Assembly: GCA_963663385.2 (NCBI GenBank)
Contig: CAXXXD010000004.1
Coordinates: 1 to 64,000 of the forward strand
From: Oceanispirochaeta sp.
GTDB taxonomy: Bacteria; Spirochaetota; Spirochaetia; DSM-2461
Length of the DNA stretch: 64,000 bases
Direction: 5' to 3'
Under the pieces are notes generated by a model. That model had not been told where the DNA came from. It did not search any database and saw nothing but the letters and a program-made list of their open reading frames with translations. The translations under genes and the position numbers were made by a program. Positions 33,620 to 41,589 of this stretch are shown here, in pieces (positions within the stretch are counted from its first letter, which is position 1; every line of letters starts with the position of its first letter).

Positions 33620-34306
33620 ATGAAATCCAAAAGACTCTTTCCCCAGGAGCTTGCCTATCTGCTGGGTATTGTGATGCTGGCGCTAAGTGCCTCGTTAATG
33701 GCCCGGGCGAATCTAGGCGTCTCTATGGTGATTGCTCCGGCTTATCTTATCTATCTTAAATTGTCGGTACTCTATCCGTCTTTTACATTCGGTATGGCCG
33801 AATACGGACTGCAGGGAATCCTGTTGATCGCTATGGTTCTGTTTCTGAGACAATTCAGGATCAGCTACCTCTTTTCGTTTATCACCGCAGTATTCTACGG
33901 ACTGGTTCTCGATTTCTGGATGATAGGCGTAGAGCACTTTGACCATGTCCATGGCCTGCCTCCTCTGCTCTACTTTGTATCAGGTCTATTTCTGGGGGCC
34001 TTTGGTGTTTCCCTGCTGTTTAAAACCTACATATCTCCGGAGGTTTACGAACTCTTTGTAATGGAAGTTTCATCTCGCTTCGGGATCGGGATCAGCCGCT
34101 TTAAAACCGGTTATGACATTACCAGCTGTCTACTGGCGATAGCCCTGTCGTTCCTGTTTTACGGATTTCCACACTTCGAGGGCGTCAAATGGGGGACTGT
34201 AGTCTGCGCCGTTGTTAACGGCCCGCTGATCGGTCTATTCAGCAAATGGATGGAGAACCGCCTGAATTTCATTAGGGTGCTGGAGAGAAAGAAGGTTGCC
34301 GGATAG
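33620..34306 (+). CDS. YczE/DUF6198-like membrane protein
   Basis: ANLGVSMVIAPAY, FTFG, P.VYELFV, FKT.YD, GVKWGTV..A..NGPLI. Confidence 0.8.
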   Translation: MKSKRLFPQELAYLLGIVMLALSASLMARANLGVSMVIAPAYLIYLKLSVLYPSFTFGMAEYGLQGILLIAMVLFLRQFRISYLFSFITAVFYGLVLDFWMIGVEHFDHVHGLPPLLYFVSGLFLGAFGVSLLFKTYISPEVYELFVMEVSSRFGIGISRFKTGYDITSCLLAIALSFLFYGFPHFEGVKWGTVVCAVVNGPLIGLFSKWMENRLNFIRVLERKKVAG

Positions 34307-34599
34307 GTGTAGAATGATTCATTAAGGTAATCAGTACTATTTCGGGCTGTTTCCTGATCATTTTCTGAAAAGGCTCTGTTAATACAGAGTTTCCACTAAC
34401 CTATCGGTCTCTCGCCAATGACTGGGATCCTGTCAAGCATTATCAATGCTGAGAGTGTTGTGATAGACAAAGGTCGGTTAATCAAAAGCAGTTTTGAATA
34501 ATTCGTTTGTGCGGGAAAAAAATAAACAGAAGATTAAATTCTACAAAAAAAAGCAAAGAAAAGCATATATATTTCAGATTGGACTTAATAAACTAATGA

Positions 34600-34798
34600 A
34601 ATATCAGGCGTCCTATAGGACTTAATAGGGAACCGGGTGAGAATCCCGGACACCCCCAGGTACTGTAAGAGAAGAGGGTAGCGATACGGATTGAAAGTGC
34701 AACACTTTCTGATATATCCGGCCACTGCGGCTGTTTACCGGCTGCGGGAAGGCTTTGTTTAACCGTTTAATTCTTGAGTCAGGAGACCTGCCTGAAAA
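34600..34798 (+). ncRNA. Cobalamin (B12) riboswitch
   Basis: AATAGGGAACCGGGTGAGAATCCCGG, CCCC..ACTGTAA, GCCACTG, GGGAAGG and B12 box GAGTCAGGAGACCTGCC in canonical order; P1 TCAGGC/GCCTGA. Confidence 0.93.
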
Positions 34799-34921
34799 AC
34801 CGTTCATAGAACGGGGTCAATAATCACGATCTTCTGGGTTGGAGAGGGTGTACCCGTATTAAACAAAAGAATATTCCGGAATTATTCCCACCAGAAAGAT
34901 CTCCGTTTTGAGGGAGAAAAA

Positions 34922-36277
34922 ATGAAAAAGCTGTCTATCGTTCTAATCAGTCTCTTACTGATCACAGGTATGCTGTTCGCCGGGGGAACCCGGGAACAGT
35001 CCGCTTCCGGCAATGCTTCACCAGCTGTGCAGGAGCAACAAAAAGATTTAGCAACAATAAGTGCGGACAACGCCAGACTCGTTGTCTACGGCAACGCAAA
35101 CAATGATGATTTAATTAATACGCATGATGTTGATATCATTGGTGATATAGCATCAGGAAAAGCTTCCTGGGATAAAACCGCCAATCCGTTTGCAGATGCA
35201 AACGCCGATGGAAAAGTCGATTCGAGTGATGTAGATCTGGTTGAAAAAATAGTAAACAAAGAAAAATGCACAGTGTATTACAGAGACTTTCAGGATGAAG
35301 CAGTTGCTGTAAATTATCCAATTACCGGGACTGTAGGAACAATGTATTATCAGCAGGCTCAGCTCTCCATTCTGCTCGGTCTATGGGACAAAGACGTTAT
35401 TGCCTGTGGGGTTCGAAACCTGAATGATACAATTGCCCCCGGATTCGAACAGAAGATATCTTTCGGGCAGGGCTATAATGTTGATCCGGAACTGGTGGTG
35501 GAATCAGGGGTCGACACGCTTATCTGTTATACTCAGACTGATACGACCGCACCAGATATTAAAAAACTGGTAAGGGCTACCGGTTTGGATCTTAATGTCC
35601 TCTGCATCAACCATGAATCACTTCTTGAATGTGTCGTCACATACGGGTTCCTGTTCGACAGAGAGAATATTTCGCTAAAGTATGCTGAATATGCGGACAA
35701 CTCTGCCAGTATTATAGATGAAAGTCTGAAGAATGTTTCCCGTGAAGAACAGCCGTCGGTAGCCACTGTCATGCTTTATGGTAAAGCGACAACAGATAAA
35801 ATACGTGTCCTGGGGTATAATCCTATGGGCAATACAAACAATCTGCCGAAGCTTGTCCATTCAATACCTAATAACAATTGGATCAGGGCGGATCTGGAAA
35901 ACCCTGCCTATGGAACATACGTTACCTCAGAGTGGTTTATTGAAAATGATCCCGATTATATACTCCTGGCGGTATCCGGGATTGGCACTACGCCTGAAAT
36001 GACGGAATCTGAGGTTTACGACGTGCTTTACACCAAGTGCAGGGAAGTCTTCGAAGAAACCAGCGCCTTTAAAAACGGTCAAATCATCGCGGCAACCCAT
36101 GCGTCGCTGAACGGTTACTCCGGCCCTTTACAGTCGTTGAAGCTGCTCTCATTCGTTTATGATGAAATAGATAAAGCTTACGCCGATGAGGTCTATAATG
36201 CCTGGTATGATGATTATGCAATGTACTCCATAGACGACTACAGCCTTGAAAGAATCTTTTACGTTAATCCGCAGTAG
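34922..36277 (+). CDS. BtuF/FecB-type ABC substrate-binding protein with N-terminal dockerin-like EF-hand pair
   Basis: Leader LFAGGTRE; GNANNDDLINTHD and ADANADGKVDSSD loops; VDPELVV, VTSEWFIENDPDYIL, SAFKNGQI. Confidence 0.8.
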   Translation: MKKLSIVLISLLLITGMLFAGGTREQSASGNASPAVQEQQKDLATISADNARLVVYGNANNDDLINTHDVDIIGDIASGKASWDKTANPFADANADGKVDSSDVDLVEKIVNKEKCTVYYRDFQDEAVAVNYPITGTVGTMYYQQAQLSILLGLWDKDVIACGVRNLNDTIAPGFEQKISFGQGYNVDPELVVESGVDTLICYTQTDTTAPDIKKLVRATGLDLNVLCINHESLLECVVTYGFLFDRENISLKYAEYADNSASIIDESLKNVSREEQPSVATVMLYGKATTDKIRVLGYNPMGNTNNLPKLVHSIPNNNWIRADLENPAYGTYVTSEWFIENDPDYILLAVSGIGTTPEMTESEVYDVLYTKCREVFEETSAFKNGQIIAATHASLNGYSGPLQSLKLLSFVYDEIDKAYADEVYNAWYDDYAMYSIDDYSLERIFYVNPQ

Positions 36278-36290
36278 TCACGGAAAAGAC

Positions 36291-37424
36291 ATGAAACAGG
36301 AAACTGATCGACTTATAGGGGATGTTGTAAGAAAATCCGTTCAGAGCTGGATTACCGGTATTGATGCTGAAGATCCTGAAAAAAAAGCTGTCTCCGAATA
36401 TAGGAGATATGCCGCCAGAAAATGGATTTTTCTGGCAGTTTGCCTTGTTGCTCTGATAGTCATGTGCGGAGTCGCACTGACTATCGGGCAGTATAGTATC
36501 GGATTTAAGGAATCCTATAGAATCCTTTTGCAGCATATATCAGGTGATATAGAGGATAAGCTGAAGGATTACGTTATATGGGACTTGAGGTTGCCGAAAA
36601 TAGTCGTCGGGATTATTGCCGGAGCGGGGCTCTCAATAAGCGGAGTTACGATGCAGAGTATATTGAAGAATCCGCTGGCCGATCCCTATACAACAGGTGT
36701 ATCATCCGGTGCAGGTTTCGGAGCCACACTATCCATTGTTATGGGGGCTAATGTGGTAGCCAATGAATACGCGCTTGTCCTGAACGCCTTCATTTTCGCA
36801 TTGATTCCGACTATAGTAATCCTTCTTGTTTCAAAAATAAAAAACTCCTCACCGACAACCATGATTATGGCGGGGATTGCAATCATGTTCATCTTCAACG
36901 CTCTCACAACGATAATAAAACTCTGGGGGGATCCTAACGCTCTTGGAGCCATCCTTGAGTGGCAGATTGGATCCATTGGAGGAATTGAATGGAAAAACAT
37001 CCCTGTAATGCTGGCAGTTGTCATAACGGGCTATTTGATCATTCATCTGATTTCACGAAAACTGAATATTCTGGCAACTGGAGAGGATAATGCGAAGGCC
37101 CTGGGGGTAGAAGTTGAACGTCTCAGAATTACAGGCATGATCCTGGTAGCGCTGGTTGCTGCCTCGATTGTCTGCTTTACAGGGCTTATCGGTTTTGTCG
37201 GCCTGGTTTCTCCCCATATTGTCAGGATTGCTATTGGAGCGGACAATCGGTACCTGGTCCCGGGCTCTGCGCTGTTCGGAGCCACTCTGCTTATCGGAGC
37301 TGATATAGTTGGAAAAACACTTGTGTCCCCGGCCGTACTGCCCGTGGGGGTCGTTACAGCCTTCCTGGGAGGTCCTCTGTTTTTCTGGTTGATTATAAGA
37401 AAGAGATCCGAGCTGTGGGGATAG
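36291..37424 (+). CDS. BtuC/FecCD-family ABC permease
   Basis: IWDLRLPK, MQSILKNPLADPYTTGVSSGA, GEDNAKALG, GLIGFVGLVSPHI.R, LPVGVVTAFLGGP. Confidence 0.93.
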   Translation: MKQETDRLIGDVVRKSVQSWITGIDAEDPEKKAVSEYRRYAARKWIFLAVCLVALIVMCGVALTIGQYSIGFKESYRILLQHISGDIEDKLKDYVIWDLRLPKIVVGIIAGAGLSISGVTMQSILKNPLADPYTTGVSSGAGFGATLSIVMGANVVANEYALVLNAFIFALIPTIVILLVSKIKNSSPTTMIMAGIAIMFIFNALTTIIKLWGDPNALGAILEWQIGSIGGIEWKNIPVMLAVVITGYLIIHLISRKLNILATGEDNAKALGVEVERLRITGMILVALVAASIVCFTGLIGFVGLVSPHIVRIAIGADNRYLVPGSALFGATLLIGADIVGKTLVSPAVLPVGVVTAFLGGPLFFWLIIRKRSELWG

Positions 37425-37428
37425 CGAA

Positions 37429-38208
37429 GTGGTCATAGAAATAAACAAATTGTCTTTCAATTACTCTCAGGATGTGCAGGTCTTGCATGAAATAAGCCTG
37501 AACCTTGAAAGTCCCGGATTGGTTTGTATTGTGGGACCCAACGGGGTGGGAAAATCTACTCTTATCAAATGCATAAACGGATTGCTCAAGCCCGGTGAAG
37601 GGAGTGTAAGGATAGACGGAAAGGATGCGCAGAGATACAAAAAGAAGGAATTATCGATGAAGATCGGCTACGTTCCGCCTGAAACAAAGGACTTGTTTTC
37701 ATTGCCTGTAATTGATGCAATCATGCTGGGCCGGCACAATCTCCAGGGGTGGAGAAATACGGATAAGGATATTGAAAAGGTCTACGGAATCATGAGGCTG
37801 CTCAATATTGAGGACCTTGCCATGAGATCGTTCAACCGATTGTCGTCCGGTCAGCACCAGAGAGTCGCTTTGGCAAGAGGTCTTGCCCAGGAAACAGAAG
37901 TGCTGCTGCTGGATGAACCTACAGCCAATCTGGATGTCAAACACCAGATCTATGTTACAGAAATGTTGAGAGCTATTTCAAAAGAAAAACGAATGCTGGT
38001 CGTAATGATCAGTCACGATTTGAACACAGCCGCCAAATATTCCGACAATATTGTCGTAATGACCGCCCCGGGCCGGATCCATTCTTTCGGCGCACCCGGA
38101 ACGGTAATAACCCGGGAAACAGTCCGTGACGTGTACGGAATCGATTGTGAAGTAAGCAAAAGGAAGGGCGTTCCCCATGTCGTACCCGGTTCGGTCATTT
38201 CCATTTGA
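37429..38208 (+). CDS. BtuD/FecE-family ABC ATP-binding protein
   Basis: GPNGVGKST, LSSGQHQRV, LLDEPTANLD.KHQ, SHDLN.A. Confidence 0.93.
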   Translation: MVIEINKLSFNYSQDVQVLHEISLNLESPGLVCIVGPNGVGKSTLIKCINGLLKPGEGSVRIDGKDAQRYKKKELSMKIGYVPPETKDLFSLPVIDAIMLGRHNLQGWRNTDKDIEKVYGIMRLLNIEDLAMRSFNRLSSGQHQRVALARGLAQETEVLLLDEPTANLDVKHQIYVTEMLRAISKEKRMLVVMISHDLNTAAKYSDNIVVMTAPGRIHSFGAPGTVITRETVRDVYGIDCEVSKRKGVPHVVPGSVISI

Positions 38209-38301
38209 AAAAAAAGTGATCACCATAGTGCTTCACTCTCCTGCTGCCGCTAATATCGGTCAGGAAACTGAATCTAAACTTAAAGGAATCTGAAACCCAA
38301 T

Positions 38302-39057
38302 ATGAGAAAGATAGCAATATACGGCAAAGGCGGAATCGGTAAATCGACTGTCTGCTCGAACCTTTCGGCAGCTTTTGCGCTGCAGGGATTAACGGTTATG
38401 CAGATCGGCTGCGATCCCAAGGCGGACTCTACTTTGCATCTTACCGACGGAAAGCCCCCGATTCCAGTCATTGAGTATCTCAGGAAAAATACCGTATGCA
38501 ACCATATCGGTGAGATAACGAAAATCGGGTTTAATGATGTAATCTGTATTGAATCAGGAGGGCCTCCTCCGGGTATCGGCTGCGCGGGTCGAGGTATACT
38601 GTCCACATTCGAAGTAATTGAGGATCTGGGCGCTTTTGAAACATACAAGCCCGATATTGTAATGTTTGATGTCCTGGGCGATGTTGTTTGCGGTGGATTT
38701 ACCACCCCGATCAGGGATGGTTGGGCTGAAGAAGTTTATATCGTAACATCTGGCGAGAAGATGTCGCTCTTTGCCGCTAAAAACATAGCAAAAGCTCTTG
38801 ATTCCCTTTCCGGCAGGGGCTATGCCCGGCTTGCCGGAGTTATCGGTAACTGCAGGGGAATCCCCGGCGAAAAGGAGATCATTAAGGATTTTGCCCGTAC
38901 GACAAGGTCTGAAGTTACGGGAATTATTCCGCGCGATAACGAGATCTCATTCTGGGAATCGCAGGACAAGACTGTGCTTGAAGGGAATAGGGATTCTGAA
39001 ATATCCAGGGCCTTTATAGATCTTGCCGGTGCAATCTCGAGAGTAAGAGTAGAATGA
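38302..39057 (+). CDS. NifH/CfbC-like Fe protein (nitrogenase-like reductase component)
   Basis: [48 protein letters not shown] (both 4Fe-4S Cys), VTSGE.M; 251 aa. Confidence 0.93.
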
Positions 39058-40376
39058 AGAGAGAACCATTTGGAATCCCCATAAGCGATCTTTGCGGAAC
39101 AGCAACCCACTGGAGACGCAAGATTATGCCTGACGACGCTCTGCACTTCATGCCTCCTCACGGCGGAGGTTGGGGAATTGTCAGGACCGCGTTGGAGCTT
39201 CCTGATTCCGTTGTGCTTATGGCTGCGCCGTCGGTCTGTGCGAGGAGCACGGGGCTCCGCGAGCTCTATCTTGAATACAGGGACCGGTTCTTTTTTCTCG
39301 ACATCAGTGACCGCAATTTTGCAGACGGAAGTTTTGAAAAACTGATTCTCCAAGCCGTCGATGAAATTATGGAATACCTTAACAACAGCCCTGCGGTCTT
39401 TATGTTCTGTCAAACCTGTATAGACGATGTGATAGGTTCGGATTATGAACATCTGCAGAGAAGGGTTGAAGCAAAATATCGAATCAGGACTGCATCAATT
39501 CACCTGAAGCCGACAACTGCAGAAGGTAAAAGGCCTTCGGGGCTGCTGACTCAGCGTTCTATATTCAATATGATCAGGACGGTAAAATTGAGAGATAAGG
39601 GGATTAATCTGCTCGGTTCCGTGCTGCCTGTGTCATCTGAAAGTGAGTTCCACGACATTGTCCAGGCGGCGGGAATTGGTCCGCTCCGTCATCTGACAGC
39701 CTGTGACTCTATGGAAGATTTTGATATGATGAGCGCCTCATCCTGGAATATTCTGATGAGGCCGTCTGCCCGACTGGTCGTCAATGATATGAGGAAAAAA
39801 TACGGAACACCCCATGTCAATCTTACGGGTGCATTCAGTATAAAAAACGTCGATGCTAACTACCGGCTGCTGGAAGATTTCTTCGGTAGGAATCTTAACA
39901 CAGAAGGTTACAGAGATGAATGTGTTGACTTCATCTCCGGCAATACTCCGGAGTTCAGGGGCATGACGGCAGCGGTAGGATCAAGCGTTTACACGGGAAC
40001 ATTCGAACTGGCACGTGCTCTCGTTGAATACGGATTCGATGTAAAATACATATTTGCTAATATTATAATAGATTTCGACTCTGAGCATTTGCAGTGGCTT
40101 AAGGATAATGCTCCGGGGATTATGCTGTATCCGAGCTCACACACAAGCATGTCTCAATTTCACAGCCTTGGCCAAAAAGTCGATATTGCATTCGGGTTCG
40201 AGGCTGGATATTTTTGCGGCGAAGCGCCGACTGTACCGATGCTGCCGTATTATACTGATTTCGGTTATCAAGGCATCAGGGCTTTGATTAACGAAATTAA
40301 AGAGGTGATTAATAACCCCCGTCCTCATATGGAATCCATGTATGAATCATTTTATAGGCGAGGTAAAAATATATGA
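39054..40376 (+). CDS. Nitrogenase component-1-like subunit (NifD/BchN/CfbD-like)
   Basis: [46 protein letters not shown]-coupled to the nifH-like gene. Confidence 0.85.
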
Positions 40377-41518
40377 GAGGTTTAAATAAGAAACTCCCTC
40401 CCTTTTCTTCGGATATTGCGGGAGCATGCGCCTCTCTTTTCGGTATGGGGGGTGTGGTGGTCGTACACGAACCGGCATGCTGTACAAGCTGCTACACGTC
40501 CTATGACGAACCAAGGTATTACGGCAGCTCAAGTCCGCTATACAGCTCTGAACTGAGGGAAATCCATCTGTCCACCGGAGACGACGAAACAATCCTTAGA
40601 AGGATTGAGGCGGCGGTTAAAATAATCGACTGCCGCTTCATTGCAATCATAGGCAGTCCGATTCCGATGTTTGCCGGAACCGACTACAACGCCCTTGCAC
40701 GGGAGACGGAAAAAAGGACAGGCATTCCTTCCATCGCAGTGGAAACAGGAGGATTCGACCGATACGATAAAGGGGCTTCCAAGGCATTATTACAATTAGC
40801 CCGGAAATTTATTCCGCCTGTGGCAAAGCGTGAATTGGACGATGTAAAAACCGGGGAAATTCGCAAAATTAATATAATCGGAGCTGTGGCGATGGACGGC
40901 ATCAGGATCAGAGGTACAGGAGGGTTGGCTGAATATTATACTCATAAAGGAATCGAAATAAATTCAGTATTTACCGACGGATCTTCAGTGGTCGAGGTTT
41001 TAAAAGCCGGAGCCGCAGATCAGAATGTTGTTATTTCCGTTTCTGGGCTCAGTACTGCCGAATATCTGAAAAACAGCTTCGGAATTCCCTACACTTGTGG
41101 AATCCCGATATATCCACCGGGGTCTTACGAACCTGCGAACGGTTTAAAAATCGGAAAGGGTCTGATCATCGGAGACCAGATAATTTCCAACTCAATTCGC
41201 AACTGCCTCTGCAGAGACTTCGGGATTCCTGATATCCGGGTTGCCTCTTTCTTTTCCATGAATGAACGCATTATGCAACCGGGAGATTGCCGTCTTGATG
41301 GAGAAATCGATCTTGAGAAAATGCTCGCGGATGTTGATTTTGATTTCCTGATTGGAGATCCGGCATTCCTTCGATTTATAGAAGATTATCCTGAAAAACG
41401 TTTTATTTCCCTTCCTCATACTCCGGTTTCAGGGTTTTCCCCCCTTCGAGAGGATCCTGTTCTCGTAGGAGAAGCCGGATTCAGGTTCTTTGAGAGCAGA
41501 CTTGCTGAATGGGGATAA
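40373..41518 (+). CDS. Second nitrogenase component-1-like subunit (NifK/BchB-like)
   Basis: LPPFSSD.AGAC, HEPACCTSCY...DEPR, SSEL.E....GD, GSPIP...GTDY, ETGGF..Y.KG, INIIG; ATGA-coupled. Confidence 0.85.
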   Translation: MRGLNKKLPPFSSDIAGACASLFGMGGVVVVHEPACCTSCYTSYDEPRYYGSSSPLYSSELREIHLSTGDDETILRRIEAAVKIIDCRFIAIIGSPIPMFAGTDYNALARETEKRTGIPSIAVETGGFDRYDKGASKALLQLARKFIPPVAKRELDDVKTGEIRKINIIGAVAMDGIRIRGTGGLAEYYTHKGIEINSVFTDGSSVVEVLKAGAADQNVVISVSGLSTAEYLKNSFGIPYTCGIPIYPPGSYEPANGLKIGKGLIIGDQIISNSIRNCLCRDFGIPDIRVASFFSMNERIMQPGDCRLDGEIDLEKMLADVDFDFLIGDPAFLRFIEDYPEKRFISLPHTPVSGFSPLREDPVLVGEAGFRFFESRLAEWG

Positions 41519-41589
41519 GCGGTGTAATAAATTGGGGTGATTGTAATTGCCAGTGGGAACTGTCATTCTTAGGTATAATATCCCTCTCC

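Follow-up and report, generated by a model that had tools for sequence, protein, structure and literature searches.

Among the nitrogenase-like enzymes described so far, DPOR, COR and CfbCD carry a simple [4Fe-4S] cluster between their subunits and all reduce tetrapyrroles, as set out in a 2026 review (PMC13474568), and MAR and ISR (MarBHDK and IsrBHDK, groups IV-C and IV-F) combine an H/D/K layout with import-linked nutrient salvage, ISR being co-expressed with sulfonate ATP-binding cassette (ABC) transporter genes according to the same review. Nitrogenase-like gene sets beside ABC transporters were reported by Dos Santos et al. 2012 (BMC Genomics 13:162, PMC3464626) in Clostridium cellulovorans, Methanocorpusculum labreanum and C. 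botulinum A2 Kyoto-F, with metal-cofactor assembly as a guess at their role, and NFL Group VI of the Elusimicrobia (Meheust et al. 2020) is described among radical SAM genes with a proposed tetrapyrrole substrate. The review calls the uncharacterised nitrogenase-like clades the main challenge of the field, and for groups IV-D, IV-E and VI, all uncharacterised, it finds gene context to have been of little help so far (PMC13474568). Here we describe a real and uncharacterised variant within this superfamily which comes with a regulatory clue: in a stretch of 64,000 nucleotides of Oceanispirochaeta sp. (contig CAXXXD010000004.1, positions 1 to 64,000 of the forward strand, hereafter the window), genes for a NifH-like protein and two component-1-like subunits (H, D and K, together HDK) follow a cobalamin (B12) riboswitch and the three genes of an importer. 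We tentatively read the locus as an import-and-reduce module under B12 repression whose cargo would bear cobalt, either as a chelate or as a corrinoid, a reading that falls a little short of being probable. It consists of the following features.

34589..34809, plus strand: cobalamin riboswitch aptamer (RF00174, model positions 1-189 of 189)
34810..34921, plus strand: expression platform, with a 5-bp hairpin (34900-34917) over the GGGAGA ribosome-binding site
34922..36277, plus strand: substrate-binding protein gene (451 aa; from translation and predicted fold)
36291..37424, plus strand: FecCD-family permease gene (377 aa from ATG; PF01032)
37429..38208, plus strand: importer ATPase gene, GTG start (PF00005)
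38209..38301, plus strand: 93-bp spacer separating importer from reductase genes (from sequence)
38302..39057, plus strand: NifH-like gene (PF00142)
39054..40376, plus strand: D-like (alpha-type) component-1 gene (440 aa; PF00148)
40373..41518, plus strand: K-like (beta-type) component-1 gene (381 aa; PF00148)

The riboswitch, already named in the initial annotation of the window, was confirmed in a covariance-model scan, where the full RF00174 aptamer scored 92.4 bits at 34589-34809 (gathering threshold 31.5, E 1.2e-21). In the minimum free energy fold of the expression platform UCUCC is paired with the GGGAG directly before the ATG of gene 1, a fold which is not better than that of shuffled sequences (z 0.14), and a consensus scan of 34810-34921 gave no terminator-like site on the plus strand. 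With no terminator and with a hairpin over the ribosome-binding site of gene 1, control by this platform is probably translational. Reading of the junctions bore out the annotated arrangement of six co-oriented genes with gaps of 13, 4 and 93 bp followed by two 4-bp ATGA overlaps, with the permease taken from its ATG (377 aa), a form identical to the one in the protein database. No promoter-like or terminator-like site was found by consensus scans on the plus strand of the 38209-38301 spacer, in keeping with the earlier remark that no terminator had been noticed between the genes; over the whole region there were 11 promoter-like sites (14.3 +/- 3.7 in shuffles) and 12 terminator-like sites (8.1 +/- 3.2), neither in excess of chance, and the fold of the spacer is unremarkable against shuffles (z -1.08). 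Co-transcription of HDK with the importer is likely rather than proven. The stretch 34300-41522 is also present, with differences at 11 letters, on one contig of 16,013 bp, and the other matching contigs contained no more than fragments of it. Within the permease gene, approximately 120 nt from its start, there is a terminator-like hairpin with a 9-bp stem and a T-rich tail (36414-36436), which may be a chance occurrence or an internal attenuation point.

The NifH-like protein is matched by Fer4_NifH (PF00142, 265.8 bits) and by a solved NifH (6nzj, 227 bits), and it keeps the P-loop, switch I and II, and both [4Fe-4S] cysteines, Cys94 and Cys130 (VVCGGF), the motifs being named in part after PMC13474568. 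Against the NCBIfam models it scored 293.6 bits for CfbC (cut-off 402), 285.8 for nifH (cut-off 394), 186.8 for BchL (cut-off 345) and 169.2 for BchX (cut-off 331), so that by its motifs it belongs with the NifH-type Fe proteins although it falls below the nifH and CfbC equivalog cut-offs. It is predicted to be an ATP-dependent [4Fe-4S] reductase subunit. The D-like and K-like proteins, at 440 and 381 aa as short as first annotated, were recognised by Oxidored_nitro (PF00148) with 77 bits and with 85.4 bits (residues 15-245), respectively, and are remote from all curated models: the best NCBIfam model for the D-like protein was nifE (38.4 bits, cut-off 505), the alternative alpha model gave 27.4 (cut-off 513), and there was no match to the BchN, BchY or CfbD models, while the K-like protein scored 53.4 bits for nifE (cut-off 505), 34.2 for BchB (cut-off 490) and 21 for nifD (cut-off 654). 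The CfbD model TIGR03282 was matched by one of 52 D-family members (E 3.7e-6). Among solved structures the D-like protein reached 43 bits at most and 35.8 bits with MarD (9d9u_A/9fmg_A), and the best match of the K-like protein was MarK (9d9u_C, 28.8 bits); both entries are MAR structures (9D9U and 9FMG, cited as such in PMC13474568). An AlphaFold2 (AF2) model of the D-like protein (pLDDT 91.1) has the component-1 fold, and does not discriminate further, since NifK, AnfK, MarD, NifD and BchN all superimpose with template-modelling (TM) scores of 0.6-0.73 (BchN 0.68/0.73).

The cysteines are more telling. Only C62 and C122 are invariant across the 52 D sequences, and hidden Markov model (HMM) alignments place them at P-cluster positions of the NifE/NifD type, whereas at the position of the catalytic-cluster cysteine (NifD Cys275) the D profile has Arg or Leu, as against 'NCARS' in VnfD and 'FCYT' in MarD. 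In the K-like protein C37 is nearly invariant across 12 sequences, and the window protein has C36, C37 and C40. The best match to a NifB model in the genome was a 20-bit hit with internal stops, and PF00148 is found genome-wide at the window locus and one paralogous locus only. This is the pattern seen in enzymes that combine a simple inter-subunit [4Fe-4S] cluster with a substrate cavity. Since it has only simple Fe-S-type cysteines, no catalytic-cluster cysteine and no NifB, the set most resembles DPOR, COR and CfbCD, with which it shares an ATP-dependent NifH-like reductase, component-1 partners, few cluster cysteines and no need for NifB; it differs from these in coming with an importer and a B12 riboswitch and not with a pigment or F430 pathway, and in its short D and K subunits.

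We considered and rejected membership of several described groups. Nitrogenase proper (Nif/Vnf/Anf) does not fit NifD and NifK scores far below the cut-offs, the lack of a cofactor cysteine and the lack of NifB; DPOR/COR (Group V) does not fit the scores against the BchL/X and BchN/B/Y/Z models; CfbCD (Group IV-B) does not fit a CfbC score below its cut-off, no CfbD match and a separate K-like gene; and MAR (Group IV-C) does not fit weak MarD/MarK matches and the lack of a MarB/NifB-like gene. By these comparisons, which used curated HMMs and the sequences of solved structures, the H/D/K set lies outside the curated Nif, Bch and Cfb models and is remote from the solved MAR structure, and the initial description of an uncharacterised nitrogenase-like set whose subunits do not fall inside a characterised clade has stood. 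Its statement that no nifB/E/N, bch or cfb genes are nearby likewise held for the 12 open reading frames (ORFs) scanned at 31-46 kb with Pfam and NCBIfam. A tblastn search of plasmids returned one Treponema record only and no rhizobial NifD, and no group IV-D or IV-E labels were found in PMC11423573.

Compared with the other described systems, MAR and ISR require a NifB-like maturase and complex clusters, of which the window set has none, and their importers are of a different class. Group VI likewise has very divergent D/K proteins, at most four cluster cysteines and no NifB, but it has no importers, its NifH is described as sister to group V whereas the window H is nearer to NifH/CfbC than to BchL/BchX, and nothing like its radical SAM neighbourhood was seen among the 12 neighbouring ORFs. 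The sets of Dos Santos et al. 2012 show the same pairing as the window, compared here by description, and that paper gives no function, regulatory link or riboswitch. We found no link between nitrogenase-like enzymes and B12 riboswitches in the literature searched, subscription papers lying outside that search, and the initial claim that no characterised nitrogenase-like enzyme is known in such a role agrees with what was found there.

The importer belongs to the FecCD/type II class. The permease scored 307.9 bits with FecCD (PF01032), and its best NCBIfam model was BtuC (232.7 bits, below the cut-off of 334), while the ATPase scored 106.4 bits with ABC_tran (PF00005), and was best matched by the haem (206.3) and corrinoid (201) ABC ATPase models, both below cut-off, with 133.2 bits for BtuD (cut-off 281). 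The FhuB, FecCD, haem and F420-0 models score the importer about as well as the Btu models do, and permease and ATPase fall outside BtuFCD proper. The 'Btu-type' label of the initial annotation therefore holds loosely for these two proteins, and appears ill suited to the binding protein. The latter has a signal peptide and a dockerin-like module followed by a class III (metal-chelate type) binding domain, and has no match to Peripla_BP_2 in Pfam. Its AF2 model (30 homologues, pLDDT 87.4) has the class III binding-protein fold and is closest to YiuA (9if3_D, VIA Z 26.0, root-mean-square deviation 2.9, 317 residues aligned), followed by a FepB-like protein (23.8) and a Eubacterium iron binding protein (23.2), with CeuE, FeuA and haem binders at Z 18-20; the fold as such does not fix the ligand. 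Tyr, Asp and Glu make up most of the positions conserved in this protein family and none is basic, which would be unusual for a catecholate binder, and some homologues carry PF01497 and PF00404. Relative to riboswitch-controlled BtuFCD importers, the window has the same succession of riboswitch, binding protein, FecCD permease and ATPase, and the genome has five more uptake loci of riboswitch control, but here the BtuC and BtuD scores stay below cut-off, the binding protein carries a dockerin-like module and is YiuA-like rather than BtuF-like, and three reductase genes follow.

The dockerin-like calcium-binding module itself (residues 59-111, window positions 35096-35254; Dockerin_1, 23.7 bits) is the sole dockerin match in the genome, and a genome scan found no cohesin. 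Many homologues of the binding protein share the module, and some add a Big_2 domain.

The pairing of HDK with an importer extends well beyond the window. A profile search with D in 1.84 billion representative sequences gave 977 matches at E <= 0.001, of which 284 reached E <= 1e-30, and some of the matches are D-K fusions. We define the HDK-plus-type-II-importer family by a match to the profile of alignment A2 at E <= 1e-30 with an adjacent FecCD-type importer, and the window D, itself a member of A2, scored 538.7 bits and has the importer next to it. The family occurs in 14 of 400 other genomes of the phylum, 11 of these in one taxonomic family, and a co-oriented FecCD permease and ATPase stand beside H-D-K at 11/14 other spirochaete loci, a count which overstates independence since the loci are kin; of the three that are left, one is truncated by the end of its contig and two are without such an importer. 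Where importer-bearing loci were scanned with Pfam (5/5), each contained one to three Peripla_BP_2 binding-protein genes. The linkage of importer and reductase first noted in the window is thus conserved family-wide. One same-genus genome has the binding protein-permease-ATPase-H-D-K order of the window, with a D-like protein 28% identical and with the ATPase and H ORFs 12 bp apart. In the permease tree, the window permease groups with the riboswitch-controlled permeases of its own genome (support 91/86, 92/92), while those linked to HDK in the other clade make up a group of their own (90/91, 99/99). By this placement HDK has been joined to two importer lineages, which in turn argues that the coupling of importer and HDK is functional.

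The window's own D clade is rare. Eight close homologues of the window D, at 47-76% identity, were present among 5.8 billion clustered proteins, and in a tree of 120 D-family members the window clade is a separate branch of nine sequences (support 1.0, stem 0.605). Two permease homologues (94% and 90% identity) come from contigs of 9735 bp and 186921 bp, and the records of two D-like homologues (76% and 73%) give contigs identical in size and source, the size of 186921 bp being also that recorded for a binding-protein homologue at 80%; permease and D-like homologues thus appear to share two other metagenome contigs.

Taken with the riboswitch, these data suggest that the enzyme reduces a cobalt-bearing compound which is imported when B12 is scarce. 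In the sequence of events that we propose, corrinoid scarcity would open the riboswitch and allow translation of gene 1, and the type II ABC importer would take up a bulky cobalt compound, which would most likely be a corrinoid or another tetrapyrrole of cobalt and otherwise a cobalt chelate. ATP hydrolysis by the NifH-like protein would then drive low-potential electrons through a simple [4Fe-4S] cluster between D and K to the imported cargo held in their cavity, in the way that tetrapyrroles are reduced by DPOR, COR and CfbCD, and the reduced product would enter B12 metabolism or yield its metal. Both what is imported and what HDK does to it are inferred here, and we lean somewhat towards a corrinoid or cobalt tetrapyrrole rather than a cobalt chelate of another kind. 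A narrower form of this proposal, in which the cell would import a corrinoid or an oxidised B12 precursor unusable as it stands, and HDK would be a reductase dedicated to its salvage, acting on the macrocycle or on the cobalt centre so as to return it to the B12 pathway, and possibly covering a precorrin-6-type ring reduction, is possible but doubtful; if true, it would be the first enzyme of the nitrogenase superfamily in B12 metabolism and the first to act on an imported rather than a self-made tetrapyrrole. Confirmation of the broader proposal would extend the functions of the superfamily to B12 or cobalt salvage, and would suggest that the much larger importer-linked family does likewise for other metal chelates in anaerobes. 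The gene context is unusually informative here: the ligand of the RNA sensor, the bulky-chelate class of the importer and the simple-cluster type of the enzyme together leave few candidate substrates, all within reach of bench assays.

Several observations weigh against the import-and-reduce proposal. The binding protein appears YiuA-like and resembles the iron-chelate binders rather than BtuF, which was absent among the 50 structural entries listed and among 44 sequence matches at E <= 1. No cobalamin riboswitch was found in any of 16 related HDK loci (0/16), all of a different clade, so that the link with B12 is observed for this genome only, and the neighbours of HDK in the other clade suggest iron rather than cobalt (FeoB and flavodoxin at locus L048, SufBD at locus L050). 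At least ten contigs, some of 24-268 kb, appear to carry homologues of binding protein and permease with no D-like match, and the importer would thus function without HDK in most of its hosts and be the more widespread of the two. Most genes of anaerobic B12 synthesis are present in the genome (CbiA, CbiC, CbiD, CbiG, three further tetrapyrrole methylases, two copies of CbiK, CbiB and CobS), which makes a need for salvage not obvious. Finally, HDK lies 3.4 kb downstream, beyond the 93-bp gap, and as the platform appears to act on translation of gene 1, its reach to HDK would hang on coupling and polarity and is not assured.

Part of this evidence would fit a rival explanation in which the riboswitch governs the importer only, with HDK starting independently of B12 from the spacer and acting like the rest of its family, which probably processes imported iron chelates or haem when iron is limiting. 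All junctions of the operon are tight except for the 93-bp gap, and this spacer contains a TAATAT hexamer resembling a -10 box, spotted by eye and with no matching -35; this explanation also agrees with a translational platform, with the missing riboswitches and the FeoB, flavodoxin and Suf genes at related loci, and with a binding-protein fold nearest to iron-chelate binders. On the other hand, the spacer has no promoter-like site by consensus scoring, the same gene order occurs with a 12-bp ATPase-H gap in the same-genus genome, the window permease is nearer to riboswitch-controlled than to HDK-linked permeases, and within the window clade some contigs appear to carry a D-like and a permease homologue together; we therefore consider it unlikely, though far from negligible. 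An own promoter of the nifH-like gene had been named at the outset as a point that would speak against B12 control; the spacer has no consensus site and the one hexamer seen by eye, and control of HDK by the riboswitch is something that we infer from gene order. Nothing usable on a link of the HDK family with iron, Fur, haem or C. difficile was found in the literature searched. In one published table, the locus tag of a C. difficile NifH is two positions from that of an iron ABC permease.

Import-and-reduce of a cobalt compound has further to be weighed against a biosynthetic role, in which HDK would take the place of CbiJ, the cobalt-precorrin-6A reductase, with cobalt or a precursor brought in by the importer. 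Neither PF02571 nor TIGR00715 detected a CbiJ in this 98% complete genome, while the synthesis genes listed above are present; the missing step is the reduction of a macrocycle C=C bond, which is DPOR/COR chemistry, and B12 riboswitches commonly control cob/cbi genes. The gap is weak evidence, however, because the CbiJ models match only 2/14 control genomes (6/14 for CbiC and CbiG), and a 'missing' CbiJ is thus common and mostly unrelated to HDK. In addition, HDK lies outside the cbi cluster, which has no riboswitch nearby, and the pairing with an importer would go unexplained, all of which renders this role improbable. The cluster in question (G000:C2:196-209 kb, locus L058) holds early-pathway genes of haem and B12, with a HemC-CobA-HemD fusion, CbiA/C/D/G and the three methylases.

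The two remaining explanations are weaker still. That the D/K pair is a scaffold and not a catalyst, possibly for a hydrogenase cofactor, draws on NifE being the best curated model for the family (E 8.7e-21 at best, top model in 46/52 members, weakly) and on the metal transport coupled to cofactor assembly proposed in the text of Dos Santos et al. 2012 (PMC3464626), but with no NifB, no cysteine at the cofactor position, none of the 12 neighbouring ORFs encoding a hydrogenase or a maturation factor, and no obvious logic for a B12 riboswitch, we regard it as decidedly improbable. B12 riboswitches control B12-independent isoenzymes such as MetE, and the operon could similarly bypass a B12-dependent step, for example by supplying a methionine precursor as MAR does, and would for that reason be turned on when B12 runs out. 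This replacement of a B12-dependent step, offered as an alternative in the initial annotation, can point to the MetE precedent (see PMC11260477) and to MAR feeding methionine synthesis (as stated in PMC13474568), but it gains little from MarD and MarK matches of 35.8 and 28.8 bits in a set with no NifB/MarB and no catalytic-cluster cysteine, from an importer type which carries bulky chelates and not small sulfur compounds, or from a neighbourhood in which none of the 12 ORFs is a sulfur-metabolism gene, and is very improbable.

With regard to origin, the cassette looks acquired. A search of 400 other genomes of the phylum gave no relative of the binding protein at E <= 1e-15, the Atlas clusters nearest to the window D are from Bacillota, and the named permease homologues (P0216, P0242 and P0246, 64-71% identity) are from Methanomassiliicoccales. 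These are corrinoid-dependent methanogens, a point in favour of the import-and-reduce proposal, and the sequences suggest that the importer was transferred between domains. A 'fused nifH/nifE' gene is mentioned for one Methanomassiliicoccales archaeon by Borrel et al. 2014 (PMC4153887). No relative was found in the genome-contig and metagenome-contig collections, which were scanned for the contexts of the closest homologues. Composition was rejected as a test of horizontal origin, since the G+C content of 0.44-0.49 throughout the operon is similar to that of the flanks and uninformative.

Seven cobalamin riboswitches were found genome-wide, the window copy included, and five of the other six precede uptake genes: four lead loci with a binding protein, FecCD permease and ATPase (two with CbiK and one with CbiZ), and one leads a TonB-dependent receptor, a context that likewise favours the import-and-reduce proposal. 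Two of these riboswitches are divergent and lie back to back (G000:C1:92633-93110), the first leading into a binding protein-FecCD-ATPase-CbiZ set and homocysteine-synthesis genes, and the second into two proteins of no assigned function, the TonB-dependent receptor and a further such protein. The sixth (G000:C3:249870-250049, minus strand, locus L024) precedes the gene for a protein with B12-binding domains (PF02310, PF02607), unusual under the control of an OFF switch, and then one for an aldose epimerase. Among the paralogues of the window permease, the closest (37% identity) is in an operon with no riboswitch listed nearby (G000:C2:492300-496650, L060 4325-8653), which contains in order a binding protein, an S-adenosylmethionine methyltransferase, a FecCD permease, an ATPase and an FmdE-domain zinc-finger protein.

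The second H-D-K set of the genome (G000:C2:1218370-1224690, L011 9370-15690) is 27-52% identical to that of the window and has a convergent binding protein-FecCD-ATPase importer; there is no riboswitch, and an IS200-type transposase gene lies just upstream. Elsewhere in the family, one locus has three tandem binding-protein genes (L047 4447-8016), and in another H-D-K is preceded by genes for FeoB, flavodoxin and one more binding protein (L048 3346-8106).

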